From contig JBEKFP010000001.1 of assembly GCA_050013255.1 (NCBI GenBank), positions 832,001 to 896,000 of the forward strand: a stretch of 64,000 bases of DNA, written 5' to 3'. Position numbers and translations under genes: made by a program. Source of the stretch: Candidatus Bathyarchaeia archaeon. Its GTDB lineage: Archaea > Thermoproteota > Bathyarchaeia > 40CM-2-53-6. Positions 21,988-36,845 of the stretch are shown here, piece after piece. The first letter of the stretch is position 1. Each line of letters opens with the position of its first letter. The notes under the pieces are model-generated. The model was not told the origin of the DNA, searched no databases, and saw nothing but the letters and a program-made list of their open reading frames with translations.

Positions 21988-22023
21988 CACAAACCCCTCT
22001 GAGCTGGTCATTATGCGAACGAG

Positions 22024-23281
22024 GGCACTGTTAACTTGTCGGCCTCATTGCTTTCAGCGACCTCTCATGCCTAAAAGAGGATGAAAGTTTAGGCTAAGTT
22101 ATGCGGGCTGTCAAGACAGTTCAACAACACTACAAACTCAACCCTGAGATTCTACGAATGCTTGACGAGTTCCGCCAGATGATGAACACCTGCACACGGA
22201 TCGGTTTGGCTGAGAATGTTACGAGCCTCAAGGCTTTGTCCCTGAAAGCATACAGGCAACTCGCAACCTACGACGCGATGAGCTACTACAAGTTATGCGC
22301 CATCAGCAGTGCGACCGGCATCCTGCGAAATTATCGGAGGACCGCTCGACATGGAGAGAATCCAACAACCCCTTATGTTCGGCGTTTGAGGTTGACCACA
22401 TGCTACGGATTCAAAATTAAGGATGGCTGCTTGCTGCTCCCGTATCATCCCAGGAAAGCAATCGGAATCCCTCTAACACCCCATGTTCAAGCAACCATTC
22501 GAAAGCACCCGGTTCGTTCGGTCACGTTGACCAAGGATAAGTTATCGCTGACATATGCGAAGCAGGTCGCGGAGGTCAAGCCGAATGGCTTCATCGGCAT
22601 CGATAGGAACCTAAACAATGTCACGTTGGCCGGCACGGACGGTTCGATCATGAAACATGACCTCTCCGACGCGACGCGGGTAAAGGCTACTTACCGTCAG
22701 GTTCGCTCCCGTATGAGGAGGAACGATGTACGCATCCGCCGCGAAATCACGGGCAAGTATGGCTGGAAGCAACAGGAGAAGGTGAATCGAATTCTCCATC
22801 AAGCATCCAAAATGATCGTGCAACAAGCCAAGCAGGGGGGCTTCGGCATCGTGATGGAGCAGCTCACGGGCCTTCGGAAGCTGTATCAACGTGGAAACGG
22901 CCAAGGAGGATGGTATCGCGGCCGGATGAACTCTTGGTCGTATGCGGAGTTACAACGTCAAATCGAGTATAAAGCCCGCTGGGAAGGTTTACCGGTTATC
23001 TATGTTCATCCGCATGGGACAACAGCGAAGTGTTCGATATGTGGGTCTCGCATGGCGAGAATACCCGAAGAGAACCGAACGCTGAAATGTCCGTCGTGCC
23101 GGGTGAGCGTAGACCGCGACGTAAATGCCGCCAGAAACATTCTGGAGAGAGGCGTGAGGTTCGCGCCAATCGCGCTTCCAGTTGAAGCGATGGTACAGGA
23201 ACCCTCCAGCAAGGTAATCCTGAAAGTCGATGGAAGCGAGTTAACGAGTTGAAGCCCATGAGCCAACAAGTTAACAGAACC
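22024..23281 (+). mobile_element. TnpB-only element with imperfect inverted ends
   Basis: 22024-22056 is an imperfect inverted copy of 23250-23281; flanks are CGAACGAG and CGAACAAG. Confidence 0.6.
22101..23252 (+). CDS. tnpB: RNA-guided endonuclease TnpB (IS200/IS605-IS1341 type)
   Basis: RuvC D (GIDRN), E (VMEQL), D (DRDVNAARNI) and CxxC...CxxC zinc ribbon are all present; no TnpA nearby. Confidence 0.95.
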   Translation: MRAVKTVQQHYKLNPEILRMLDEFRQMMNTCTRIGLAENVTSLKALSLKAYRQLATYDAMSYYKLCAISSATGILRNYRRTARHGENPTTPYVRRLRLTTCYGFKIKDGCLLLPYHPRKAIGIPLTPHVQATIRKHPVRSVTLTKDKLSLTYAKQVAEVKPNGFIGIDRNLNNVTLAGTDGSIMKHDLSDATRVKATYRQVRSRMRRNDVRIRREITGKYGWKQQEKVNRILHQASKMIVQQAKQGGFGIVMEQLTGLRKLYQRGNGQGGWYRGRMNSWSYAELQRQIEYKARWEGLPVIYVHPHGTTAKCSICGSRMARIPEENRTLKCPSCRVSVDRDVNAARNILERGVRFAPIALPVEAMVQEPSSKVILKVDGSELTS

Positions 23282-23290
23282 CGAACAAGG

Positions 23291-23298
23291 CTTTAATT
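23291..23298 (+). promoter_or_regulatory. TATA box of tRNA-Lys
   Basis: CTTTAATT about 30 nt upstream of the tRNA 5' end. Confidence 0.55.
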
Positions 23299-23327
23299 CG
23301 TGGGGAAACTTTCTGAAGCTTCCGGGT

Positions 23328-23465
23328 GGGTCCGTAGCTCAGCCAGGTAGAGCGGCGGATTGGGCATGTGTTTGCCAGGCCGAAGCTCTTAACAGCCTGA
23401 GGGAGACCCGAAGGTCGAGAACCACAACAGTGGCCGACAAGGTTCAAATCCCTCCGGACCCGCCA
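23328..23465 (+). tRNA. tRNA-Lys(CTT) with three introns (23359-23384, 23392-23405, 23420-23440)
   Basis: Spliced: GGGTCCGTAGCTCAGCCAGGTAGAGCGGCGGGCTCTTAACCCGAAGGTCGAGGGTTCAAATCCCTCCGGACCCGCCA, a full cloverleaf with encoded CCA. Each intron has a bulge-helix-bulge-like motif. Confidence 0.9.
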
Positions 23466-23471
23466 CTCCAA

Positions 23472-23495
23472 CGGTTCCAGACCAGGGTCTGGCAA
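23472..23495 (+). repeat. 24-bp palindromic repeat copy 1 (CGGTTCCAGACCAGGGTCTGGCAA)
   Basis: Identical to 27558-27581; core CCAGACC-AG-GGTCTGG is a perfect inverted repeat. Confidence 0.9.
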
Positions 23496-23629
23496 ATATC
23501 GAAAAGGCAGCCTCTCAGACTAACGCCGTTTACATATGCAGTGTGCGTGCACCGCTATTAGTGGAGTTCAAATCTGAATGCCCGCACATTGTGTCCCCCA
23601 CAACTTCCAGAAAAGCTAGCAAGCTAAGA

Positions 23630-23668
23630 GTTCAATTTGTGATGCCCGCACGGCTATACCACACACAC
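23630..23668 (+). repeat. tRNA-3'-end-like repeat, inverted relative to 36643-36682
   Basis: 32/40 identity to the reverse complement of 36643-36682; related copies at 23566-23587 and 27645-27670. Confidence 0.75.
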
Positions 23669-23716
23669 AAAGTGTGACTATTACGGCCCTGTCTCGGTTT
23701 CAGGTGACTCACAACT

Positions 23717-25309
23717 TCAGAATATCTTGAAAAGGCCTCCAAGATCCCCATGGTTGTCCAAGTACTGGAACAGAGCTGCTACTCGAGGGATGATCAGAAC
23801 CTCGATTATTGTGGATACACCTGCCACGTATAGAACCAGCGAGTTCATGTTTTGGATGACCTCCTCCAAGCCGTGCCACTCGGATGCCCACTCAGACGAT
23901 CCGTATCCGGCCAAGATTACAAGACCTACGGTTCCCATCGCCAGTATCAAGTAGAACCACAAGACCTCATCTTTGATTTTCTCGGCGAGGATCTTGAGAT
24001 AACTATTGAGTTTCAGATGTGTTCCGGTTCGCAATACTAAGAGCCAATACGCCGCAAGGAATAGTATTGAGGGCAACAAGTAGGAGAACGCTGACGAAGC
24101 GGCCTCTTTGCCGAGGAAAATCGAAGCCAACTCAGGTGCTGTGAAATACACCGCGAACATGCCTCCTCGCAACAATGCAAAGTAAGTTACGAACGTTAGA
24201 ACCGACTGCCTTTTCACAAACGCCCTGTATCTTGTAGGGTTCTCGCGCCAATCCTCGAGAATTTGAGGGATTTTGACCATGCAGATTACGTAGGTTATCG
24301 CGATTGTGCAAGCAACTGGGAACATGGCCACTTTTGGATCGATCCTGATTGGGCTGGTCATCGCGATCAGGAGGAAGAATCCCGGCAATAGTAGCCAGAC
24401 GTCCGGAAGCATCGCAAAGAAGACCATTTCGACGAAACGCTCCGTGTATTCCTTCTCGAGTATTCTGGCCATGCTGAGCGCAAGGACGATTACGAAAATA
24501 CCGTTAACCAGTATGAAGCTGACGCCGAAAAGCGCGATGTATCCAAACATTGTCCCGTTCACACCGGTAATCAGCTCTACCGGAACAGATTGGGCGACTA
24601 TCCATGCCCCTACAAGAGCAAGTGTGGCCCGCATTTCGAGAATGGAAACGTGTTTCTTGGAAAGCACCGATAGAAGATGAGCCAGGAAAATCAAGGGCAT
24701 TAGATGATAGAGAATCGAGAATGACATCACCATCTGTGGCGGCGTGCCCAGTTGGTATTCATTAGGCCCGGAATTCACGGTAAGTCTAGGGAATGATAGC
24801 CACAAGATCCCTGTCGTGATTGGTTTCCAAGTTTCTTTGATGAACAACGATTCTCCAGGCATCAGCGTAGCGTTAATGCCAGTGTAGCTCGAGGAAGGTA
24901 GTGGTGATGGGAAACGGCTCCCAACCGCAGGTCCTAGATACGTCAGCGGCTCTCCGCCGACGGTTATCAGCAGGGACGCTTCTGGGTTGTCTACCCCAGC
25001 CCCTGATGGGTTCAATGCCATATGAACGATCGTGGGTGCGGATCCCCGATTGGTCACATTAACGCGGAATGATACGGGTGTTCCGAGTTCAATGATAACG
25101 ACGGGTGAATAATCGCAGTAGTACTCCACTTTCGCTCCTTGAGACAGGTCGTGAAGACGCACCGTGGTTCCGGTATTAGCGTCCGCACGGACCTCAATGG
25201 TTACTGTGAGAAATGCGGCAATCACGATCGCTATCACTACGAAGGTCAGCCATTGATGGCGTCTATCTACGGACGTGGCGGCAGGCGAGGTTGTCACTGT
25301 TTGAGCCAT
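23717..25309 (-). CDS. Hypothetical polytopic membrane protein with N-terminal extracellular beta-rich domain
   Basis: 530-aa ORF with signal anchor and many TM segments. Confidence 0.7.
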   Translation of the reverse strand: MAQTVTTSPAATSVDRRHQWLTFVVIAIVIAAFLTVTIEVRADANTGTTVRLHDLSQGAKVEYYCDYSPVVIIELGTPVSFRVNVTNRGSAPTIVHMALNPSGAGVDNPEASLLITVGGEPLTYLGPAVGSRFPSPLPSSSYTGINATLMPGESLFIKETWKPITTGILWLSFPRLTVNSGPNEYQLGTPPQMVMSFSILYHLMPLIFLAHLLSVLSKKHVSILEMRATLALVGAWIVAQSVPVELITGVNGTMFGYIALFGVSFILVNGIFVIVLALSMARILEKEYTERFVEMVFFAMLPDVWLLLPGFFLLIAMTSPIRIDPKVAMFPVACTIAITYVICMVKIPQILEDWRENPTRYRAFVKRQSVLTFVTYFALLRGGMFAVYFTAPELASIFLGKEAASSAFSYLLPSILFLAAYWLLVLRTGTHLKLNSYLKILAEKIKDEVLWFYLILAMGTVGLVILAGYGSSEWASEWHGLEEVIQNMNSLVLYVAGVSTIIEVLIIPRVAALFQYLDNHGDLGGLFKIF

Positions 25310-25763
25310 CCCAGGTGCTCAGGATTGTTGCACAATCTGTAGGCTTGCTCCATAGACCTCTGGCTCCCGGTGTTGCTGCGTTACGCGCTCCTTATTCAGA
25401 GAACCAGTAAAGCCAGGATCCTTTGCAGTTTTGCTACGCGCGATTTTTTGTAGCTGCCCATTGTTAACAGGAGGTCTAGCTCATCAAACCGTGATTCCGA
25501 ATCAACTTGCCTGGATCTCAACTCCTTCACGTCCATCTACCTCCTGTTAGCAAGGTTCCGCCTTGGCTAAGAAGGGGCTCTGAGACAAGAAGCCGATTAC
25601 AAAACAGTCTCAGATTCTATGAGAGGCAACGATCTCACTGAATCATCTGACTGACTTGGCAGAGATTCAACCGCGAGTCGCAATGAAAGAAGTTATTTAC
25701 GAAAAAGACAGACTCCTATAACATAGACGGGCTTCACATAATGACGGGCCGGTAGCATACTGC

Positions 25764-26600
25764 TTGACCAATCATACTTCGCTGACCATGGAAGACGAAG
25801 TTGAGCTGTACCGTTGGCTTTGCAAATACTTCAAGTTGACAGAGATTCAGTGCCTCACAATCATGTTAGTTTTAGCGAAATCAAGCAGGAATGTGTATCA
25901 GGTCCACCAAGACTTGAAGGAAGCTATGGAACTAGGAGATAAAGGAGCTGGGGCGTTGATCCTCAAACTTGGCGGCAAAATACCAAAAGAGCCCCCAGTC
26001 TATGCTTCGGTACACAACTGGCTCACTGGTCCTTTTGTTCGCTACGGTTTTGTCTCCATTGAGAAGCAGGTCTCGAAGAAGGAAGTAGCGATCGGCTACC
26101 GTGACATAGTCCAACCCTCCAACGGGATTTCTTCGCTTGTTCAATCATACGAAAGAAGTCACAAGTTGCAGGAAGGGGCGGACACACTTTGCCATGCGAT
26201 TGTGACGGACAAAGAAATACCGCGAGTTTTCTTAGCCCAAAATCCGAGCCACCCCATTGAATTTAAGAAAACGCTGTATCAGATGCCCATGAGGTATTGG
26301 GCCAAGGGAGACGGGAAACTGGTGTACCAATTCGAACAACAAGCTGCTGAAGCAGCTGTTGAAGAGGTGAGTGAGGGGCGCATAAAGTGGAGCGCTTACC
26401 ACGAAATGGCAGGCAGCCCGCTGAAGCACATTTGGGCAAACGGAAGAATTACTGTTCATAGAGTATGGGCTGGGCTCGTTAAAGAAAAGAATCGATTGAA
26501 ACCGCACTCACCTTTCGCGGGACAGTGGTTTGACATGGATCAGGTGAAGACGAACCCGAAAATAGACCCGGAAGCAAGAGATTGGTTGTCCCGAATTTGA
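25764..26600 (+). CDS. Hypothetical protein, possible N-terminal wHTH
   Basis: 278-aa ORF; LTEIQ...NVYQVHQDL...YASVH...GFVS resembles a TrmB/PadR-like wHTH. Confidence 0.6.
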   Translation: MTNHTSLTMEDEVELYRWLCKYFKLTEIQCLTIMLVLAKSSRNVYQVHQDLKEAMELGDKGAGALILKLGGKIPKEPPVYASVHNWLTGPFVRYGFVSIEKQVSKKEVAIGYRDIVQPSNGISSLVQSYERSHKLQEGADTLCHAIVTDKEIPRVFLAQNPSHPIEFKKTLYQMPMRYWAKGDGKLVYQFEQQAAEAAVEEVSEGRIKWSAYHEMAGSPLKHIWANGRITVHRVWAGLVKEKNRLKPHSPFAGQWFDMDQVKTNPKIDPEARDWLSRI

Positions 26601-26671
26601 AATCACTAAACTCGGCGACATGGGTGTGGAACAACGGCAAATATCAACCGTACAGATACAGAAGAAAAGCG

Positions 26672-27412
26672 ATGAGAATTCGTAGGATCAAGTTTGTCGT
26701 ACTTGATGGGGACGGAGTCATCTACGACTTACCCATAAAGCAGGAAGATAGTCCGAAGGTTGCAGCAAGCACTTGGAATGTCTTGTTCAGCAGGCTCGGA
26801 ATCTACGAGGAGCATGAACGTCTCAAAAGGAAATTCATAGCGGGAGAGTTCAAGTCATACGTCGAATGGACAAACGCCGCCTGCAAAGTGCTCAAAGATT
26901 TCGGTCTCAAGAAGAAGATTTTCGAAGACGTCATGGAAACTCGTCAGATTGCGGCCGGAGTTTCAGAAACAGTGAGTGAACTCCGCAAACACGGCATCAT
27001 TGTCGCTACAATAAGCGGTAGTTTCGAAGGTCTGTCTCAACGAGCCAAGAGTACTCTTCCACTGGACGCATATGCCGGACACTGCAGGCTCATATTTGAT
27101 CGCAAGGGTTCACTGAGTGATTGGAGATTAAGAAGGTGTGACTACGAGGACAAAGTGTCCGTCATGCGCAGAATGGGCAGGAAATTCGGAGTCGGAGTGG
27201 ATGAATGCTCATTCGTCGGACATGAGGTGAATGATATTCCCGCACTCAAAGCAAGTGGCCTAGGGATAGCGCTGAACGCCCACAAAGAGAAGGTGAGAAG
27301 AGCAGCGGATATTTCTGTCAAAGGAGACGTGACAGCCATCCTAAAGCTGATTCTAGTAGCGCAGGCCCCTGAACTTGAACCTGTAACTGCGCCACTAGAA
27401 CTGAGTCTGTAA
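26672..27412 (+). CDS. HAD-superfamily hydrolase (phosphoserine phosphatase-like)
   Basis: LDGDGVI motif I, ISGS motif II, K, and atypical VGHEVND motif IV. Confidence 0.85.
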   Translation: MRIRRIKFVVLDGDGVIYDLPIKQEDSPKVAASTWNVLFSRLGIYEEHERLKRKFIAGEFKSYVEWTNAACKVLKDFGLKKKIFEDVMETRQIAAGVSETVSELRKHGIIVATISGSFEGLSQRAKSTLPLDAYAGHCRLIFDRKGSLSDWRLRRCDYEDKVSVMRRMGRKFGVGVDECSFVGHEVNDIPALKASGLGIALNAHKEKVRRAADISVKGDVTAILKLILVAQAPELEPVTAPLELSL

Positions 27413-27557
27413 CTGTTCTCGAAGTGTGCTTGTTTTTGGTTCGGGGAACTACTCATGATCTATTGCGTACCCGAAGCGTTCAACACGACCGCAACTGGAA
27501 AGTTCTAAATGCTCTCTCGGATAAACGGACAGACTGTCCGCGGGTCCGCCGCACTAT

Positions 27558-27581
27558 CGGTTCCAGACCAGGGTCTGGCAA
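27558..27581 (+). repeat. 24-bp palindromic repeat copy 2
   Basis: Identical to 23472-23495 and preceded by a degenerate tRNA 3' end CGGGTCCGCC. Confidence 0.9.
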
Positions 27582-27720
27582 TTTCCAAAAAATCGTATGG
27601 TAGAAGATCAATGACAACAGTTCGCGCGCAGGCGCGCGACTACAACTCAGATTTCGTCGTTCGCACTACCGTAACCCACCAGGGCGACTTGAAAAGAACC
27701 TTTGACTCCTCGGCGTGAAG

Positions 27721-29862
27721 TTACACTTGGTCCACAACTTTTATGCGGCCTCTAGCCTGGCCAAGCAACTCACGGGCAAGCCGCTCTAGAACCACATCTT
27801 GTTTCCATGGATATCTCTCCACATGGACGAGAGCTCCCTGCCTGGTTGTCTGGAGAATACAAACGGCGTTGTCGCTTTTCATCGAATATTTCGCTGCCTT
27901 AGTGTATTCCTTCAGAAGCTTATGGGACCTGGAATAGCAAAGAACCGAGCCAGTTTCAAGTCTGGTTCGAAATGCTAGATCCTTGTGCTTCTTCGTATAG
28001 GACCAAAGCTTGTCAACCGATTTAGCGAAGATGGCTCGTTCTCCATCAGTCTGTTCTAGCAATATCGCAATTCCATCTATGAACCCTGTGGCGCCATTCT
28101 TCTCAAGAATTTCTACTAGTGACTGCATCGTCTTGGGCATTTTCTGTCTTGGTTTAGGAGTCGGCGTCGAGCGTACGCCGAGGACATGATGATAATAGTC
28201 TTGGATTGGACCTGTAACGTCTGGAAAAATTATGACATTGTTACTGGCTCTGATTCGTTCGGTAAGGAGTTGGTTATCTAAAAACAGACCGAACCAATCT
28301 AATTCCTCAGTGGCAAATGCTTCTAGATCTTGTACTGCTATCCTTCGTTCAAGATAACTTACGAACTCCCCCACCCCGTTGACCAATTCAACTATCACTT
28401 GTAAGTCAAGGTCGAAGACTGACCACGCAGCCTCGTTTCCGCTTACGATTCCGGCCCTAGATAGCCAAGACATGTTTGTTGTGAAGGCGGTCAACGAGTC
28501 TAACGTCACGGAGATAAGATACATGCGTATTATGTTCTTACTTCTGAGACGCACATCGCCCTTAGGACTCTCGAAGTAGACTTCTTCCGAAGATCGAATA
28601 TACCGCGCCGCTCGCGCGTTTTGTTTTTGAGCGTCATCAACCAATCGTTTCAACTGGTCAATTGCACTTCGTGATCCTCTTCGAGCTGCCGTGGACATCG
28701 AGCCAGCTTTCGCTTCAATCAGAAACGCGGTTCTATCCACCAACACAAGCCCGTCAAGTTCGAAGTCTCGAACACCTTGCCCGTCATCATAAGAGTAATG
28801 CAGGTTCACCCACGCGTCGGCGTGGCGCGTAGTTGATTTGATCAGGGCTACTGCGTGGTTTTCTAAGTAATCCGATCTGTGACTTTCGTAGCGCCTCCAT
28901 AGCCCATCATTCTGTTCTAGTATGTTTTCAATAGCTGCTCTGAACCTAAAAATCGATTGTCCTACCAAGTGTACTAACCATAATTCATCAGATAACTTGA
29001 GAAAAGGAGCACGATCAAGGGCGTCGTAAACGCTCGGCCATCCTGCTCCTATCTCCTCCTGTCCAAATTCGGGTGTAAAGAGGTCTAGGAATTTTCTAAT
29101 GACGCGTTGATCGATTTCTGTAACCTTCGTGAGCTCTTCACAAGTCACCAAGAATATTCTGTGCGCCACCGGTCTCATGGTCTTTATCAGGTAACGATTA
29201 ACCTCCTCGCTCTGCTTGCGAAGTTCGCCAGGACCGGGTGTCTTGTGCAAATCAGGACGTTCTGACTTAGATTCTCGGTATATGATTGATTCACACTTCA
29301 AAATCCTACTATTCACCACCTTATCCAGGCCATCAAAAATCCCAAGAGCGTCGGTAATATCGAAACCGATGAGCTCCTGCAGTTCTTTGCTAAACGGATC
29401 AAAGAGTGCGTGCAATTGTGCAGTCATATGATGTCGAAAAGCTTCGCCACGCATGAGAAGGTTCAATATTCTAGTGTGTACGAGGATGTCTTCAGGGTTA
29501 TCACCCAATCGCCCCTTGCCTCTAACCCTAGCATGAGAATAATCCTCAACTAACTTCACAGCTTTCATCGAAAGAGCAAATACTTTTTCGAGATCGTCTT
29601 CTGAAGTCACCTCATCAATTGCGAGTGGATTCGGTGCCGAATCGAAATTACACAGGTACAACCAGGTGACATATTCAGCGTAAATCGGACTAATGTCCTG
29701 CAACTCAACTTCTGGGCTCGTTAGGAATATTCTCATCGCAATGTTCGAAAGAGTCGAAGCGATTGGAAGTTTGCGCACCAGCTCACGGAGTTCTTGAATT
29801 GCTTCCGAAATTTCCTGCTCTAGCACTGCTAAGTCTTTGCGTTCTGCGCCTGATCTCTCCAA
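27721..29862 (-). CDS. Large hypothetical protein with NERD/PD-(D/E)XK-like nuclease domain
   Basis: YLE...ELDGLVLVDRTAFLIEAKAG...AQKQ motif. Confidence 0.7.
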   Translation of the reverse strand: MERSGAERKDLAVLEQEISEAIQELRELVRKLPIASTLSNIAMRIFLTSPEVELQDISPIYAEYVTWLYLCNFDSAPNPLAIDEVTSEDDLEKVFALSMKAVKLVEDYSHARVRGKGRLGDNPEDILVHTRILNLLMRGEAFRHHMTAQLHALFDPFSKELQELIGFDITDALGIFDGLDKVVNSRILKCESIIYRESKSERPDLHKTPGPGELRKQSEEVNRYLIKTMRPVAHRIFLVTCEELTKVTEIDQRVIRKFLDLFTPEFGQEEIGAGWPSVYDALDRAPFLKLSDELWLVHLVGQSIFRFRAAIENILEQNDGLWRRYESHRSDYLENHAVALIKSTTRHADAWVNLHYSYDDGQGVRDFELDGLVLVDRTAFLIEAKAGSMSTAARRGSRSAIDQLKRLVDDAQKQNARAARYIRSSEEVYFESPKGDVRLRSKNIIRMYLISVTLDSLTAFTTNMSWLSRAGIVSGNEAAWSVFDLDLQVIVELVNGVGEFVSYLERRIAVQDLEAFATEELDWFGLFLDNQLLTERIRASNNVIIFPDVTGPIQDYYHHVLGVRSTPTPKPRQKMPKTMQSLVEILEKNGATGFIDGIAILLEQTDGERAIFAKSVDKLWSYTKKHKDLAFRTRLETGSVLCYSRSHKLLKEYTKAAKYSMKSDNAVCILQTTRQGALVHVERYPWKQDVVLERLARELLGQARGRIKVVDQV

Positions 29863-29892
29863 TTCACAGCCTCTCCCTCAAGCTATCGCAAT

Positions 29893-30009
29893 TCAAGCTT
29901 TGATTCGAACTGAACCTGGGTTCAGGCTTGTATAGTAAGAGGTGCCCCAGAGGCCGTCCTCTTCGTCATATGTAACGTCCCTTGGACCTAGGAGTTTTCC
30001 CGCCGACAT
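29893..30009 (-). CDS. 38-aa ORF duplicating the C-terminus of the 30011-30613 protein
   Basis: LLGPRDVTYDEEDGLWGTSYYTSLNPGSVRIKA versus LIGPRDVTYSEEDDLWGISYYRSLNPGHVGLKA (25/33). Confidence 0.6.
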   Translation of the reverse strand: MSAGKLLGPRDVTYDEEDGLWGTSYYTSLNPGSVRIKA

Positions 30010-30010
30010 T

Positions 30011-30613
30011 TTATGCTTTTAGTCCAACGTGACCCGGGTTCAAACTTCGATAATAGGAGATTCCCCAAAGGTCATCCTCCTCACTATACGTGACATCACG
30101 TGGGCCTATGAGGTCTCGCTCAACACCATGAGGCAGCTGCACGACTATATCTTTGTTCATCCACTCACGAATGAAATCTCGCCGAATTCTCGACACGCCA
30201 TGGAAACCATCAAACGGTTTCACGTGAAAATCATTGTTCCATTCCAAGTCTGTCTTGATCGAATTAGTGAGAGAGAAAGCAAGCCGCATTTTGAAGTCAA
30301 GCGGAATGAACTGCCCTGAGAATGACCCTTCAGCGACTTTCACCTTGATGTGGCATGATGTCTTTGATCCCCTTAAGCGCAATTTACTGGGACGCAGATG
30401 AGTGGTTCCAGACTTCAATGTAATTTCGCGTATTCCTTCCATGTCGGTGAGGGAAACGAAGACTTCTACCTCTTCATTAGGAAGGACGAGGCCGCAGTTC
30501 GAGGTCATAAACGGGCATTCATTTAACCCGTCGAAAGTCTGGTCTTCTCTTTCGAATTGGTTCCACTCTTCAGGGTTCTTGCTGTTCTGGACAAGATACT
30601 CTAGACCCGCCAC
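30011..30613 (-). CDS. Hypothetical protein
   Basis: 200-aa ORF; coding status supported by mainly synonymous divergence from the downstream duplicate. Confidence 0.65.
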   Translation of the reverse strand: MAGLEYLVQNSKNPEEWNQFEREDQTFDGLNECPFMTSNCGLVLPNEEVEVFVSLTDMEGIREITLKSGTTHLRPSKLRLRGSKTSCHIKVKVAEGSFSGQFIPLDFKMRLAFSLTNSIKTDLEWNNDFHVKPFDGFHGVSRIRRDFIREWMNKDIVVQLPHGVERDLIGPRDVTYSEEDDLWGISYYRSLNPGHVGLKA

Positions 30614-30841
30614 ACCAACGGTGCCATACCAGGATCCGGCAAATACTGGAAAACGGTCTCGACTGAACTTGCCTCGATCGATTGAATCCTGCCCTTCTTA
30701 GGCGAACCATCTCGTCAACCGTGATGAATCCGGTCCCCTCTTGCTTATGCTGTATCGATCTCATTTCTCTCATGTCGAAGTCAGGCAAAAAGTCTTCAGA
30801 GGAGAACAGACGACTCAGGAGTCTGCAACTCATAGCACGCT

Positions 30842-32710
30842 TTGACTTCTATGATAAACGATAAACACGCAGGTTACGAAATTACCGAAGTCTTCTGGAG
30901 TTTACCGCTACTAACTGAACTTCTTGATCTCAACAAGCTTAACCGATATTGGTCTTCGAAGCATCACGGAAAGCCGGCCCCTTCGAATCTCTCTCGGGGT
31001 TATGGTTTCTGTATTGTTTCTCTATTGTGGTCTCTGGCTGACGCAATCATCCAATTCCCTCGAGTCCTAGACATCAAAGACGCTGAACTTCTCGTGAGGG
31101 CCTGGCAAGGCAATGTTCCCTTTCACCGCATGCCGACCAAAACGCAGGCAGGTCAACTAGTTCGCAAGATCGTAGATCTGTACCGACCCTTGATGGGAGC
31201 AGATACTTTTGCTGATATTGAGCAAAATGCACCGATTCTATTGCAGGCACTAGTGAAGCCACTTTCTCAAATTTTCCTATCAAGTTTTGGGTTATCATCG
31301 GAGTTCAAGAAAAAGACAAGGCTGGATGTTCTCGAGGCACTCAAAGCCGGAGCCATCTTCAAACTCCTTTTCGAACTACAAAATCGCAAATCAATCAAGA
31401 TTGCCTATAATTACACTTATGATAAAGGCAAGCGATTTTTTGTTCAATCAACCGTTTTGCCCCTGACTGTCTCAAACCAGAGATTCTTTGACGGGTATAA
31501 GCTAGGAATAGTCTACCTTTGGGAATCGCTTCTCGAAGCGAATCAAGACTCAATTCGGAAGATCAAGAGATGCAGGACATGGGATCAACTAGAAACGCTC
31601 CGTAACGTCACTTCTACAACTATAACTCAACCATTTGCTGAACGAATCGGGCTGGAATCTCCCACGGACGAGATTGATTTCAAAAAGAGGCGTAAAATTC
31701 CAGATGAACTGATGACTCCACTTATTCGAAGTCAACACACAGTCCCATTACAACCCGCGTCGACTCAGGAAATTCTAGATGAAGCCTTTCTCTGGTATCC
31801 TCTTGTAATAGCAGGGACAGACGCCACCGCCATTTCTTCTGTGGGCTTCGCGACAGCGTTGCTCGGGACAGCAAAATTGAGACGTGGCCCGATACATGTA
31901 CTGAAATTCATTCACCGGCAGACAGAAGGCAACACGTTCAGCTTTGCTATCTTAATTCATGCGGCGAGCAATGTTGCGGACTACTCCTATTGGTGGGTTT
32001 TCCCAGACTTTGCTACAGATTTCTCTGGTATGGGGGGAGCAGGCTACGCGTTTGTAACGCAGCAGATCAACGGACTTGAAGAGAGGATAATCCTCGATGA
32101 AATCCCTGTGGCGGGGGAGGAGTTTCACCGATACGTGAAAAGGTCGAAAGAACAACGTCTGGAAGATGAAATTTCGGTCCTGCGACAAGCCCTTGACGCA
32201 GGCAGTGGAGCAATTCTGGAGCTAGTTTATGCGACAATTGCTCAAGCAAGAGGGGATCTAGTTCGCTGGCGATACAAAAATCCGGCTATTCTCGGTGACC
32301 GCGAAATTGACGTTCTAAGTATAGGAAACAATGCGACACCTGCTACTATCGAGATCGCTGAGTGCACCAGAACGGCATCGAAAGATGATGTATCTAGACT
32401 CAAGGAAAAGTTAGAACTATGCCGTCATAATTCTGCTGAACTCCTAAGAAGCATAAACGGTGGAAACAGCGCAAAGGTAGTTGAGGTTCGAGGTAGGCTT
32501 GTTTGCGCCGTACCAAGTAGATCCAAGTTTCGTGGCATCAGCACAATATCTCAAAAAGAACTCAGAGAAGCATGCACCAAGTATGGCTTGAACTGGTATG
32601 AAATTCAGCGACTCCTCGGCTTACCATCAGAGCCAGCAAAGTACAGACGGCCCAGCCCGGACGATATGCTGAGAACTCTTATGCAAGAGGATTTCGACAA
32701 AGTCAAATGA
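30842..32710 (+). CDS. Hypothetical protein with C-terminal restriction-endonuclease-like motif
   Basis: GAILE...REIDVL...IEIAECT (PD-(D/E)XK-like with atypical Lys position). Confidence 0.65.
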   Translation: MTSMINDKHAGYEITEVFWSLPLLTELLDLNKLNRYWSSKHHGKPAPSNLSRGYGFCIVSLLWSLADAIIQFPRVLDIKDAELLVRAWQGNVPFHRMPTKTQAGQLVRKIVDLYRPLMGADTFADIEQNAPILLQALVKPLSQIFLSSFGLSSEFKKKTRLDVLEALKAGAIFKLLFELQNRKSIKIAYNYTYDKGKRFFVQSTVLPLTVSNQRFFDGYKLGIVYLWESLLEANQDSIRKIKRCRTWDQLETLRNVTSTTITQPFAERIGLESPTDEIDFKKRRKIPDELMTPLIRSQHTVPLQPASTQEILDEAFLWYPLVIAGTDATAISSVGFATALLGTAKLRRGPIHVLKFIHRQTEGNTFSFAILIHAASNVADYSYWWVFPDFATDFSGMGGAGYAFVTQQINGLEERIILDEIPVAGEEFHRYVKRSKEQRLEDEISVLRQALDAGSGAILELVYATIAQARGDLVRWRYKNPAILGDREIDVLSIGNNATPATIEIAECTRTASKDDVSRLKEKLELCRHNSAELLRSINGGNSAKVVEVRGRLVCAVPSRSKFRGISTISQKELREACTKYGLNWYEIQRLLGLPSEPAKYRRPSPDDMLRTLMQEDFDKVK

Positions 32711-32756
32711 GTCCTAGTCTATTGATTGTTACTTGACGCCGTGGTAACAAGTAGAC

Positions 32757-33602
32757 TCATAGGGATTCAAAAGTCGAACGAATGCTCTCAGTGAATTTCA
32801 GAAGCTTACGAGAAAAATCCAAAGCAATACTCAAGGACCAAGCTTTGACCGCATCTCTTTGAAATGTGGATGGTCTCTCCTCTCCGCTAAGGAGAGATGA
32901 CATTCGGGGAGCCACCGCGACGTAAAACAGCGATGGATGAACGAATAAAGAAAGGATACCATAATCGAAATCGTAATATTCTCCCATTCCAAATTGTGTA
33001 GCAAGATCTCTGAAGTTAAGATCTGGCCGTGTAATAGTCGGAGTCGGACCGAACATCGTCGCCCATATCGTCTTCCTATGCTCCAACCTAACCAACTCCG
33101 ATTGCATAAATTTTACCAAGTTGCTATTTCCTTGAATTGTCACTTCATCTAGAACCTTCTCGTTGAATCTGATGACAGAAGCCTCCGATCTGCCGACAAA
33201 TTCACGAAACTTCTCCGGACTAGAAAAGGCATCTCTCGTGGCGAGGAATAACTCGAATGTGCACCTTGCCAGAGTTGCTAAAATAACGGGTTCTCCTGAG
33301 TCGTAATGGTCGATTATGCCAGTCAAGAATTCTCTATTCACAAAGAGTATCTTGATCAGAACGGCCACTTGATTATATCTAAACACTTTGGACCGAATTT
33401 CTGCGACTTGTTCTGAGCGCCATTTAGCGAAGATGCCTTCCAGTTCTTCCTGTGTCTTTCCCACAATTTGTTTTGGTTCCCATTTAGCGAGGAATTTTTC
33501 AAGTTCTTTTTGTATTTGAGATATCTGTCGCTCAGTCTCCATCAGGTCTTCTTTCGTGACGAAAGCCTGCCAAAGTGGTGGCTCTTTCGCGTCCGATTTC
33601 AT
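32757..33602 (-). CDS. DUF5677-like (HEPN-related) helical protein
   Basis: LARCTFE and Y..LSLFVHPS signature. Confidence 0.6.
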   Translation of the reverse strand: MKSDAKEPPLWQAFVTKEDLMETERQISQIQKELEKFLAKWEPKQIVGKTQEELEGIFAKWRSEQVAEIRSKVFRYNQVAVLIKILFVNREFLTGIIDHYDSGEPVILATLARCTFELFLATRDAFSSPEKFREFVGRSEASVIRFNEKVLDEVTIQGNSNLVKFMQSELVRLEHRKTIWATMFGPTPTITRPDLNFRDLATQFGMGEYYDFDYGILSLFVHPSLFYVAVAPRMSSLLSGEERPSTFQRDAVKAWSLSIALDFSRKLLKFTESIRSTFESL

Positions 33603-33814
33603 CTTTCGTCGCTTATCGGCTAATATGCAAGGAAAAGAAAAACGAATCGACATGGCTCTGGCCGTGTACATCCTGAATAGGTGCACGGCATATGTCAGCG
33701 CGCGAAATCGTCAGCAATCAGAACACACGAGAGTCCTCTGTTCTAGCAGATTCATAGTTTTCGTGCGTGGGTCTAATGATGCGCACGCACACATAACTAA
33801 TGAGGCCCGCAGGA

Positions 33815-34384
33815 CTAATCTGCCAAGTCTCTGGCGAGACTGGCCATTTCGGCGCATGTAACTCTTGATTCGCGCACGACAACCGTAGCGTAGTCTAGTG
33901 CTCCATTCCTCGTTTTCCAGTCGTTGCAACCGAAGAGTATTGCTCTGTCGCAGAGTCTACGACTATTCAGCGTCGTCTCCAACAGCGAAAAGTACGGCAG
34001 GTCAAATTTGTCGAGTTTCCATCGTTTCAACCGATTTGGCACAATGAACGAATGCTCTCCAGAGAGAATTGTTGGAATGGCAAAAAATCGTCCTCTCTGA
34101 GATTCAATTGGTATCTTGGTTCCATGATACCTCGTGAAAAAGAAGCGAACGGCGGTACCAAGATTCGGCTTCTTTGCTCTCACTAAGCCAGTCGAATAGT
34201 CGTTTAGAATTCGGTTCGAAACCGCAAGTGTAATCGTCTTTCCAGACACGTCGCAATTCGCGGTCTCGATGGCGCTTCTTAGCCACTCCTGCAATGTCGT
34301 TACGACGTCAGTGGCGCTGTTCGCAAGAAGTCTAATCAGGATATTGGCATCCAATACGAGGATGACGTTTCGGTGGCAAATCAA
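33815..34384 (-). CDS. PIN-like domain protein
   Basis: ILVLDANIL N-terminal strand, D..D (DKFD) and terminal ND acidic positions. Confidence 0.55.
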   Translation of the reverse strand: MICHRNVILVLDANILIRLLANSATDVVTTLQEWLRSAIETANCDVSGKTITLAVSNRILNDYSTGLVRAKKPNLGTAVRFFFTRYHGTKIPIESQRGRFFAIPTILSGEHSFIVPNRLKRWKLDKFDLPYFSLLETTLNSRRLCDRAILFGCNDWKTRNGALDYATVVVRESRVTCAEMASLARDLAD

Positions 34385-34394
34385 CTGAGCTTAC

Positions 34395-35591
34395 CTAGGC
34401 GCTAAAATCTGAGATTAGAGATCGAATAGCCTGGTCAAATGCCGGTTGCTCGGCTTCCCCTGCCTTAGACACGTCAATGTGGCGGATCTTCGTGAAACGT
34501 CCCGTTCTGTCAAAGTAATGAAGTCCCAAGTTTGAGTTCTTCAAGCCACCCTTGGCGACGAGACCTAAAGTCTTCTTGACTATGTAATCACTGTGAGTAG
34601 TTAGCACCAGTGTAAGTTTCCGTCTGATGGCCTCTCGACATAAGAGCGTTAGAACGAGAATTTGTCTGTAAGGCTCAAGGTGTGCTTCAGGTTCTTCAAT
34701 AACCAGCATTCCGCCCTTGTTCACTTCTCTCAGACCTATTGCAATCGGAAGCGATGCAACCACCCCGGAACCAGCTGCTTCAATCTCGGTCGTATACCCG
34801 GATTTGTCGACGAAAATCACCGTGGGAAACTCTCTTCTCTTCTCAAGCTGTATTTGTCCCTCATGAAAAGATCGAAAGGTATCGGCAATATTCTCAGTAT
34901 CGCCGCTCGACAGAAACCTAAGGTAGAGATCGTAGAAATCTTCAAGGTACAGGGGTAACCTGCCCACTGACCCAAGCAATTCCCTAAGTGCAGCAGTTCC
35001 TTCCCTCCTGAGAAGTTGAGAATTTTCTTTGTACTCTTGTATGCCTCCGAATGTTCTGACGAATCTCGAAAACATTTGATTTCTGTAACTCAGAATGTTG
35101 GTGAAGAACTGAATTGTGCCCAATCTTGCGGCTGGGATGTAGACGGCATCTCTTCCAGATATAAGACCGGGTCTGTCACGCCTCTTCCTTTCAAGCGCCT
35201 GAAGCCCTCGGTTTGTGATAATGGGAGTGGGGAACGGTCCCTTACTTCTGCTCAGCCTTATGGTGGCATTGCCCAAGTCGGTCCTGATTCTTGCCCTACA
35301 CTCCAAATTACCTTTAGTAACAATTCCTCCTACTGGTTCGTTTACCATACGCATGATTGTGCCTTCGTGCGAATATCTGCGGGGCCGTAACATCAATGTA
35401 CGAGTGTACTCATGGAAACTGCGTTCGCGTCCGCGCATGAGGGCAGATGATCGAAGGAACCCGTACAACAGACGGCCCGTCATCGACTTCCCGGAATTGT
35501 TGGGGCCAAAGAATATGTTGATCGGCGCAAGGCTGAGATCACCTTCTTTGATAGGTCCAAAATTGGAGAGATTGATCTTCTCTATCCGCAC
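34395..35591 (-). CDS. ABC/AAA ATPase (AAA_15/AAA_21 type)
   Basis: NFGPI, GPNNSGKS Walker A, YIPAAR, GSG signature, IEEPEAHLEP Walker B and TTHS motifs. Confidence 0.9.
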   Translation of the reverse strand: MRIEKINLSNFGPIKEGDLSLAPINIFFGPNNSGKSMTGRLLYGFLRSSALMRGRERSFHEYTRTLMLRPRRYSHEGTIMRMVNEPVGGIVTKGNLECRARIRTDLGNATIRLSRSKGPFPTPIITNRGLQALERKRRDRPGLISGRDAVYIPAARLGTIQFFTNILSYRNQMFSRFVRTFGGIQEYKENSQLLRREGTAALRELLGSVGRLPLYLEDFYDLYLRFLSSGDTENIADTFRSFHEGQIQLEKRREFPTVIFVDKSGYTTEIEAAGSGVVASLPIAIGLREVNKGGMLVIEEPEAHLEPYRQILVLTLLCREAIRRKLTLVLTTHSDYIVKKTLGLVAKGGLKNSNLGLHYFDRTGRFTKIRHIDVSKAGEAEQPAFDQAIRSLISDFSA

Positions 35592-36355
35592 CCTCTCACC
35601 CCGAATCTCCTCACTTTCTGAGGCGTCGGTCTCTCTTGTTTCTTCCGCTTCCCGAGAAGTGTAGAGGTCCCCGTTATCGCTTGGTTATTTCGCATGGTTC
35701 CGATGACAAGCCCTCCTCTATTGTTCGGGTACTCGTCCCAGATCCGACCATCTAAGGAGCGGCCTCCTGATTTTGGTTTGAACCCGCCATATTGCTTGAA
35801 AAAGAAAGCTACATTCTGACTGAGACATTCGTCTCGTATTTCGCGAATCCATTCCATTTTGATGGGCCTGTAGTTCGGCCCTGATTCACCGCCCACAATC
35901 GCCCATGATATGCCTGACAAGTCAAGTGGTGGTCGTGTGCTTTCGATTAGTGGTTCAAAGCTAACGAACCTAGTTCTGGCGGGGACTTCCCTCAGTATGT
36001 CTATTCGGGGTTTGAATGGCCAGCTTTCCACGGAAGTTCCCATCCAAATATGGTCTGGGACTCGACCATAACTCTTCGAGAAATCTAGCATTCGATCTGG
36101 CCGTTTTGTCAATATTTGGTAGGTATGCCAGTGGGCTCGTTCCATTACAGCGAAACACTTACGGAGATATTGGTCAGGCATGTCTTCATGAAATAAATCC
36201 GACATCGAGTCCACAAAGATCCTTCTGGGCTCGCGCCAGTGCAACGGGAGTTCGAGGTCCTTCTCATGAAACGTGAACTTGAATCCGTTTCGATACTTAG
36301 TCATCCCTCGATTCCGTAAGCTGAGCGCTAGCCTCTCTGCGTAGCAGTTCTTGCG
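35582..36355 (-). pseudogene. DUF5131 (phage Gp37/Gp68) protein, 5'-truncated
   Basis: NCYAE, FVDSMSDLFH, QILTKR, SFEPL, GGESG and FFFKQ motifs present, but WNP..GC and two of three Cys are absent. Confidence 0.8.
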
Positions 36356-36642
36356 GCGACTAGGCGGATATCGAGTGGAGAGACTGCTAGGGGGAGTACT
36401 TACGGTGAGCCTACTCGGCGGAGTAGCAGCACTCTCGATAGGTGAAGTCTTCAACTCGGCAACCCTTCTTATGCTATCGTCAGCTGAGGTTGTTCTCTCG
36501 ACTCTCTTCCTATCCGCAACCAAGACTTCAGAAATAATCACTAAGATACTCCAGCGGCACTGAGTGCTAGAATGCAGAAAGCTTCGTTCATCTCGGCCCA
36601 TAGTGTGTTCTTGGCGTTGGAATTTTCATCTCCGTCAAGAAA

Positions 36643-36682
36643 GTGTGTGTGCGTATAGTGGTGCGGGCGTCGAGATTTGAAC
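36643..36682 (-). repeat. 3' end of a second tRNA type (GTTCAAATCTCGACGCCCGCACCA) plus flank
   Basis: T-loop, acceptor strand and ACCA on the minus strand with no 5' half. Confidence 0.75.
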
Positions 36683-36845
36683 TGTTATAATGGCACGCCT
36701 TCGATCGTTGTATGAGCTTTGCCAAATCAATCGTTTTCTCCGCTGGCGGTTCAATTACCTCCGGACCCGCCACTTTAGACTCAAATCTCATTCTGTTGGA
36801 GAATTATCCTCGTCAAATCCGTCTGGGCAGCGGTTCGGCGCCGCA

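Follow-up and report, generated by a model that had tools for sequence, protein, structure and literature searches.

The tRNA-Lys locus and its island

The present study concerns a 13.3-kb island in the genome of a Candidatus Bathyarchaeia archaeon (2.46 Mb in three contigs, C1, C2, and C3; referred to below as G000). The island lies at a tRNA-Lys(CUU) gene within a window of 64,000 nucleotides (C1:832001-896000), which represents the whole stretch of DNA that was analyzed. Positions without a contig name refer to this window, and the relatives compared are genomes of the same genus, coded G0xx, among which G014, a sister species, is the closest. The stretch is present in 20 DNA sequencing runs from peat or wetland, with no RNA run among the holders listed.

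Regarding the anchor of the island, a tRNA-Lys(CUU) gene with introns (23327-23467, plus strand), the gene was identified by eye from the sequence, in which the anticodon loop reads CTCTTAA, and was then confirmed through conservation; it adjoins dph5 and is kept in 22 of the 22 genus genomes. It was missed by ARAGORN without the intron mode and by Rfam at the gathering score, according to which the window contains no tRNA, and the intron mode of ARAGORN called it at C1:855328-855465 with the wrong identity (Ser). In this mode, only 30 tRNAs were called in the whole genome, several of which were misidentified, and tRNAs with multiple introns are poorly detected in this lineage. A TnpB insertion (Cas12f1-like TNB domain) is located between dph5 and the tRNA gene at 22016-23289; G014 is without this insertion and its flanks are contiguous.

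The island is bounded by a direct repeat of the tRNA-Lys 3' end (23441-23467 and 36748-36774, both on the plus strand), 25 of the 27 positions of which are identical, and this repeat comparison agrees with the original prediction made from the sequence of the locus. The proximal copy may be a left attachment (att) site, attL, or a target duplication, while the distal copy corresponds to attR, and both of its mismatches also occur in G014. Inside the repeat lie two arms, which are imperfect inverted repeats of ~105-200 nt. The left arm (23468-23668, plus strand) comprises a conserved 14-mer, a palindrome (23477-23492) with the GGTCTGGCAAAT block, and two tandem units that resemble a tRNA 3' end (23566-23596 and 23630-23668), the second of which finishes in a (CA)n run. 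The right arm (36642-36747, minus strand) comprises a (GT)n run, a 14-mer (36652-36665), an inverted tRNA-like unit, and 65 nt with inverted TTGGCAAA and CCAGCGG blocks. When the left arm is compared with the reverse complement of the right arm, the common blocks are equidistant from the 27-nt repeat. The same left arm is also found behind another tRNA (C1:1151616).

Cargo starts behind the left-arm unit at 23660, at the (CA)n run, and ends before the right-arm unit at 36651, at the (GT)n run. The original prediction divided it into two units (~4.1 and ~9.2 kb); this division was too coarse, with further seams being present at 30599-30652 and 33763-33792, and at least four segments (about 4.1, 3.1, 3.1, and 2.9 kb) were distinguished, which carry two to three genes on both strands. 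Segment 1 (23717-27412) encodes a 530-aa membrane protein on the minus strand and a 278-aa protein and HAD-family hydrolase on the plus strand. It is followed by seam J1 (27538-27690, plus strand), a left-arm copy (78%) that consists of a Val-type pseudo-tRNA end, the identical palindrome, and a degenerate tRNA-like unit. Segment 2 (27721-30613, minus strand) encodes a protein of 200 aa and another of 713 aa that weakly matches PD-(D/E)xK, and seam J2 (30599-30652, plus strand; 81%, and 84-90% to copies elsewhere) consists of a degenerate Lys-type att and a broken palindrome. Segment 3 (30842-33686) encodes a 622-aa protein on the plus strand and a DUF5677 protein on the minus strand.

Seam J3 (33703-33792, plus strand) differs in its make-up, which is a conserved repeat found at the ends of casposons (elements with a Cas1-family casposase), a GT-rich run, a 14-mer (33770-33783), and a CA-rich run. 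The seam was found, at 33763-33792, via contig breaks and a repeat depth bump in metagenome contigs; it is 87% identical to C1:1330188-1330282, the junction between two units of an array on C1, and copies are present in five relatives. Segment 4 (33784-36651, minus strand) is a 2.9-kb cassette with CA/GT-rich ends, which encodes a 189-aa protein, an AAA_15/AAA_21 ATPase, and a DUF5131 protein; the ATPase is NsnB/AriA-like (9e-28), and the DUF5131 protein matches the candidate defence family PDC-M41B (8e-82).

The original prediction that the island lacks a recombinase was borne out. The window contains no PF00589 tyrosine integrase and no casposase or Cas1 gene, and the island contains no split integrase and no integrase or casposase remnant. 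Pfam, PHROGs, and PADLOC revealed no recombinase among the island proteins, and tblastn searches of the island with three tyrosine integrases of G000, an integrase from the metagenome contig L052, and both casposases of G000 yielded chance matches only (E>0.3).

The palindrome module and the tRNA-like motif behind it

An identical palindrome behind a tRNA end, both at the tRNA gene and at ~27541-27670, was the core of the original prediction. This was confirmed for a 23-nt stretch holding a 16-nt palindrome, which is identical at 23473-23495 and 27559-27581 (two matches vs none in 100 shuffles); a third copy at 30599-30652 had been overlooked, and the island carries three copies of the module (at 23452, 27538, and 30599). 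In alignments read by hand, the att part of the copy at 27538 matches the 3' end of a tRNA called Val by ARAGORN at 20 of 23 positions and that of tRNA-Lys at 15 of 23.

The module is missing behind tRNA-Lys in 20 of the 22 genus genomes, and G014 is the one relative in which it follows the tRNA-Lys end. The same module, of ~190 nt, is also present behind a second tRNA of G000 (C1:1151491-1151613). In G004, this second tRNA is joined directly to a sequence found 5.7 kb beyond it in G000, which represents an empty site; therefore, the module sits on inserted DNA. A 14-mer behind this second island was initially taken as a degenerate att, and the empty site of G004 shows that it is chromosomal. 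In G012, the module is located behind a third tRNA, and on two metagenome contigs (L052 and L056), it comes after degraded pseudo-tRNA ends that have no tRNA in their vicinity. The metagenome contigs in which the module is of the G014 type derive from the G014 strain itself and are without variation. An apparent degenerate module at C1:1330340-1330430 lies inside the long terminal inverted repeat (TIR) of a casposon and is probably due to chance.

Across six aligned copies of the module, the 6-bp stem of the palindrome is invariant and the loop varies (CAGG, CACG, CAAC, and TAGT), and RNAalifold applied to these six copies found an invariant stem and no useful covariation. In the right arm, only the right half of the palindrome and GCAAAT recur, in inverted form; in the G012 copy, these two are kept and another sequence stands in place of the left half. 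Because only these parts are retained in both places, the palindrome fits a candidate protein-binding block better than a hairpin, as judged from the sequence.

A second motif resembling a tRNA end had been noticed behind each module and was confirmed at 23566-23587 and, in a degenerate form, at ~27640-27670. This motif belongs to a dispersed family, for which nhmmer gave 53 hits in G000 and each relative has 8-13 copies at three or fewer mismatches vs zero for a control, and its copies cluster in regions that G014 is without. Its geometry is TCAAAT(C/T)-N8-CGCA; the spacer from TCAAAT to CGCAC is 8 nt in 41 of 45 copies, and a control word gave none at that spacing. Within the island, units with the T-loop motif 8 bp ahead of the 14-mer occur at 23566, 23630, and 36682 (minus strand).

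The casposase of A. boonei requires TCAAATC 8 bp upstream of its 14-15-bp duplication (PMC6614799). The duplications of M. mazei casposons are 14 bp with four invariant 5'-terminal positions, solo TIRs occur beside a conserved CGCA motif, and tandem arrays share the duplication (PMC4779613). By this motif analysis, the second tRNA-like motif matches the geometry of the A. boonei casposase target, which was mapped by experiment. The tRNA-Lys end itself also matches both A. boonei determinants (TCAAATC-N8-CC), and the conserved arm starts exactly 14 nt past that point.

Units that resemble a tRNA 3' end number ~50 in G000 and are often arranged in tandem with a period of ~60 nt (e.g., C1:37854-38001, C1:630711-630840, and C3:221441-222459). 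Behind a genuine tRNA-Pro (C1, complement 1237017-1237264) stand the same 14-mer and (CA)n, and this tRNA may be the original target. The (CA)n run behind the tRNA-like units was initially regarded as part of the target; bounded elements show that it is the element end.

Relatives, casposases, and bounded elements

Considering the relatives, G014 shares with G000 the left flank (~92% identical), the tRNA and left arm (23282-23587 together with the adjoining flank, 88%), and the right arm with attR (36643-36772, 87%), while nothing between the arms is in common. The change-over of cargo between the two genomes falls exactly at the (CA)n runs beside the second tRNA-like motif, instead of at the att and palindrome. 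The island proteins have no homologue in the islands of ten relatives. The complete difference in cargo between sister genomes with the same ends upholds the view of a composite of unrelated cargo at tRNA-derived sites, and because the module is element-borne and the cargo differs in this manner, the objection foreseen with that view, namely, a trailer present at empty loci and a constant order of cargo, falls away.

G003, G004, G008, G011, and G021 carry tRNA-Lys repeats with 0-1 mismatch that enclose 7-30 kb, with two units in tandem at tRNA-Lys in G021. The 3' end of tRNA-Lys(CUU) is an insertion hot spot, occupied across the genus. An all-against-all comparison of the ORFs (open reading frames) of eleven tRNA-Lys islands or downstream regions revealed no core gene in common; one ORF family is common to G008 and G011, and its N-terminal sequence reads like ABC-transporter ATPases. 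In none of the ten relatives compared do the right-flank genes have a homologue in the ~18-33 kb downstream of tRNA-Lys, and a clean empty site is available only for the module-bearing insertion at the second tRNA.

A first Cas1 homologue emerged from a Pfam scan of one repeat-rich region. G000 has two casposase genes (C1:1333418-1334641 and C3:231180-232394), which are 60% identical to each other and both lie outside the island; their best relative of solved structure is the casposase of M. mazei (6OPM, 262 bits) vs 83 bits or less for Cas1 from CRISPR systems. Full-length homologues are located inside the tRNA-Lys islands of G004, G014, and G017, and copies or fragments are present in 12 of the 22 other genus genomes. 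Casposase matches number 11 in G017, four in G014, and three in G002, and many copies are truncated or interrupted by stops.

Elements with clear boundaries were found around these genes. In G004, a 7.1-kb casposon (contig C45, L070:16603 to L071:1727) is inserted in the inverted tRNA-like unit ~130 nt before attR; the 14-mers at its two sides are identical, and the tRNA-like leader is found at one side alone. G000 carries a casposon with its casposase at C1:1330274-1346556, with TIRs of ~100 nt and identical 14-mers, and another bounded casposon with a casposase at C3:228076-237126. In G014 (C3, about 143150-151760), two units are set off by three identical 14-mers in direct orientation, each of which lies between (GT)n and (CA)n; one unit has a whole casposase gene and the other a partial gene. 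The cargo of casposase-bearing casposons includes AIPR, DndB-like, HATPase, and TIR-domain proteins.

Two units of G000 (C1:1324038-1330259 and C1:1352983-1357163) have the same (CA)n/(GT)n ends and identical 14-mers and are without a casposase; an SBP_bac_5 protein is encoded in one and KaiC-like/TPR proteins in the other. These units are candidate non-autonomous casposons. Bounded elements contain no ORF of the size of PolB, and no PolB match was obtained among the larger ORFs scanned; a separate PF03175 search, the control of which gave no match, adds nothing to this. The three PolB genes of G000 are all on contig C2, away from the casposases. In the publications consulted (2014 to 2023), casposons are all described with a PolB gene and none without one, and literature searches yielded no casposon from Bathyarchaeia.

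G000 also has three tyrosine integrases (C3:28267-29800, C3:131052-132600, and C2:259200-260077) directly behind tRNA 3' ends. Since their reading frames stay open back through these ends, the sequence suggests SSV-type genes that were split by their own integration. In C3:122448-138192, a tRNA 3' end occurs four times (122448, 131052, 137329, and 138166) with an integrase after the second, which constitutes a separate tandem array of integrated elements.

Origin of the island and comparison with known systems

We hold it moderately probable that the island is a tRNA-anchored landing pad filled with casposon-type cassettes that lack a casposase and are mobilized in trans. The frame would be an old landing pad common to G000 and G014, the cargo of which would have been filled in independently at the two casposase targets in the arms. 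The cargo segments of G000 may be casposon-type cassettes without a casposase that were inserted at the arm targets by a casposase acting in trans, for which the two casposases encoded at other loci of G000 are candidate helpers. The inner copies of the module (27538 and 30599) would represent extra or remnant left arms of the same family of arm-bearing elements, one of which is of the second-tRNA type. A recombinase acting in trans had been proposed originally, and this part is plausible; the tyrosine type, which had also been assumed, is not supported, and the only recombinases that were found linked to the motifs in homologous islands are Cas1-family casposases. It is plausible that the capture of cassettes is driven by Cas1 and is not integron-like, with a Cas1-family casposase that captures in trans being the best candidate for the enzyme.

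Several observations weigh against this reading. Since the G000 island is without a casposase, the action in trans is an inference. With its 27 nt, among which is the T-loop leader, the outer repeat is unlike the 14-nt duplications of the casposons of this genus, and either a casposase or a tyrosine integrase may have made the outer frame. A full layout of direct flanking 14-mers is present in segment 4 only, in which the two are identical at 10 of 14 positions, with approximately half of the positions being conserved family-wide anyway. In the other 10 kb of the island, the end 14-mers are in opposite orientations and two inner module copies lie inside, because of which this remainder must be a chimera of several events. 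Identical 14-mers are weaker evidence than they look because the commonest variant accounts for 9 of 55 junctions, and the TIRs of most units scarcely exceed (CA)n. All published casposons carry PolB (PMC4046053); since PolB is lacking here, the units may use a different route of movement or may be immobile. Among the pseudo-tRNA ends that precede the module in J1, L052, and L056, the likeness is greatest near the core and falls off outward, as expected of the attP of a tyrosine integrase, and a PF00589 tyrosine integrase is located 4.3 kb from the module in L052. The contigs of four metagenomes, in which the island is at the depth of the flanks and both borders are bridged, contain no excision or circle joint of the type that the original prediction had suggested searching for, with rare forms being invisible in such contigs. 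The only joint listed in them (33769 to 36657) derives from the dispersed repeat.

The best of the alternatives is a decayed tandem array of tyrosine-recombinase elements at the tRNA ("gene capture"), in which the integrases were deleted, the module is an attP-proximal arm, and the casposon seams are later and incidental. The repeat of a tRNA 3' end is the classic signature of such elements, arrays that reuse one site are known for tyrosine-recombinase elements in archaea and bacteria (PMC6563490), and G000 has another, integrase-bearing array at C3:122448-138192. The identity of the pseudo-tRNA ends near the core only and the integrase of L052 also speak for it; however, this integrase has no homologue in G000. 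Neither an integrase nor a fragment of one is present in the island, and a PF00589 integrase was likewise not found in ten relatives, in either their tRNA-Lys islands or the regions downstream, although the repeats of five of them have only 0-1 mismatch. In G000, the frames of the three integrases, open through tRNA 3' ends, suggest genes split by integration, the inverted arms that abut the repeat are foreign to integrase elements, and the cargo changes exactly at casposon-type seams. Taken together, we consider this history rather unlikely.

The explanation offered originally was a platform akin to an integron, where cassettes would enter at the att and palindrome of tRNA origin through a tyrosine recombinase in trans. 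The att and palindrome do occur at three seams of an island without a recombinase, and the cargo is unrelated between segments. On the other hand, no IntI-like gene is present, and the seams read as tRNA-end-like or GT/CA-rich junctions rather than attC-like sites, with no attC model having been run; the cassettes are multigenic, with genes on both strands, the inner copies have degenerated, one being of another tRNA type, and the cargo boundary common with G014 is at the second tRNA-like motif instead. This platform is improbable. A chromosomal role of the module as tRNA trailer, terminator, or processing signal in a vertically inherited variable region, as its position directly behind tRNA ends and its hairpin might suggest, is scarcely credible, given that the module is missing behind the orthologous tRNA in nearly all of the genus genomes and from the empty tRNA site of G004, which already contradicts the trailer, occurs away from tRNAs, is not followed by a T-run, and shows no covariation.

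A broader form of the landing-pad reading may be put forward tentatively and with clearly less confidence. In this genus, small tRNA-anchored, arm-bearing elements may serve as landing pads with tRNA-end decoys, into which casposases without PolB insert cassettes serially on the leader-proximal side, many of these cassettes being defence-like and without a casposase. The CRISPR adaptation module is held to descend from casposons. If true, this landing-pad reading would describe a Cas1-driven array of gene cassettes, like a CRISPR array writ large; the array would represent an intermediate, still living, between casposons and CRISPR adaptation and would be analogous in function to integrons. 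Observed here are casposases without PolB, casposon-ended units without a casposase, and tRNA-like decoy targets multiplied in the arms of tRNA-anchored islands. If casposases fill these pads in trans, the origin of hypervariable, defence-rich, recombinase-less islands in these archaea would be explained, the definition of casposons would widen, and a testable natural case would be available in which a Cas1 enzyme inserts whole genes in a leader-directed manner and duplicates the repeat.

Among known systems, integrons resemble the island in that unrelated cargo units are arrayed at one anchored site; in contrast, IntI, attI, and attC are absent here, and the units contain multiple genes rather than promoterless single ORFs. 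SSV-type and pNOB8-type integrase elements and "gene capture" arrays share with the island the repeat of a tRNA 3' end, the reuse of a site, and trapped elements without a working integrase, whereas no integrase, whole or split, is present here and the repeat is flanked by inverted arms. Cis-mobilizable elements (CIMEs) and integrative mobilizable elements exploiting Xer (IMEXs) are integrated elements without their own recombinase, which are moved by the integrase of an integrative and conjugative element or by the host XerCD; they are bacterial and depend on a tyrosine recombinase. They are alike in their end recombination sites, lack of a recombinase, tandem accretion, and an enzyme that acts in trans, and unlike in having no inverted arms or casposon sites. 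Viewed in these terms, the G000 island has end sites and no recombinase, candidate helper genes are present in the genome, and no movement was seen in the contigs.

The family 2 casposons of A. boonei (AciBoo-C1) and Methanosarcina mazei differ in that the bounded elements here have no PolB and many units are without a casposase, the targets are mostly dispersed tRNA-like decoys (~50 per genome) and not one tRNA gene, and the island in the window has no casposase and an outer repeat of 27 nt, not 14. The likeness to family 2 lies in the Cas1-family casposase with a C-terminal helix-turn-helix, targets at tRNA 3' ends in which a T-loop motif precedes, by 8 bp, a 14-nt duplication beginning with CGCA or CC, the sharing of this duplication within tandem arrays, solo ends, and TIRs that vary and possibly contain palindromes.

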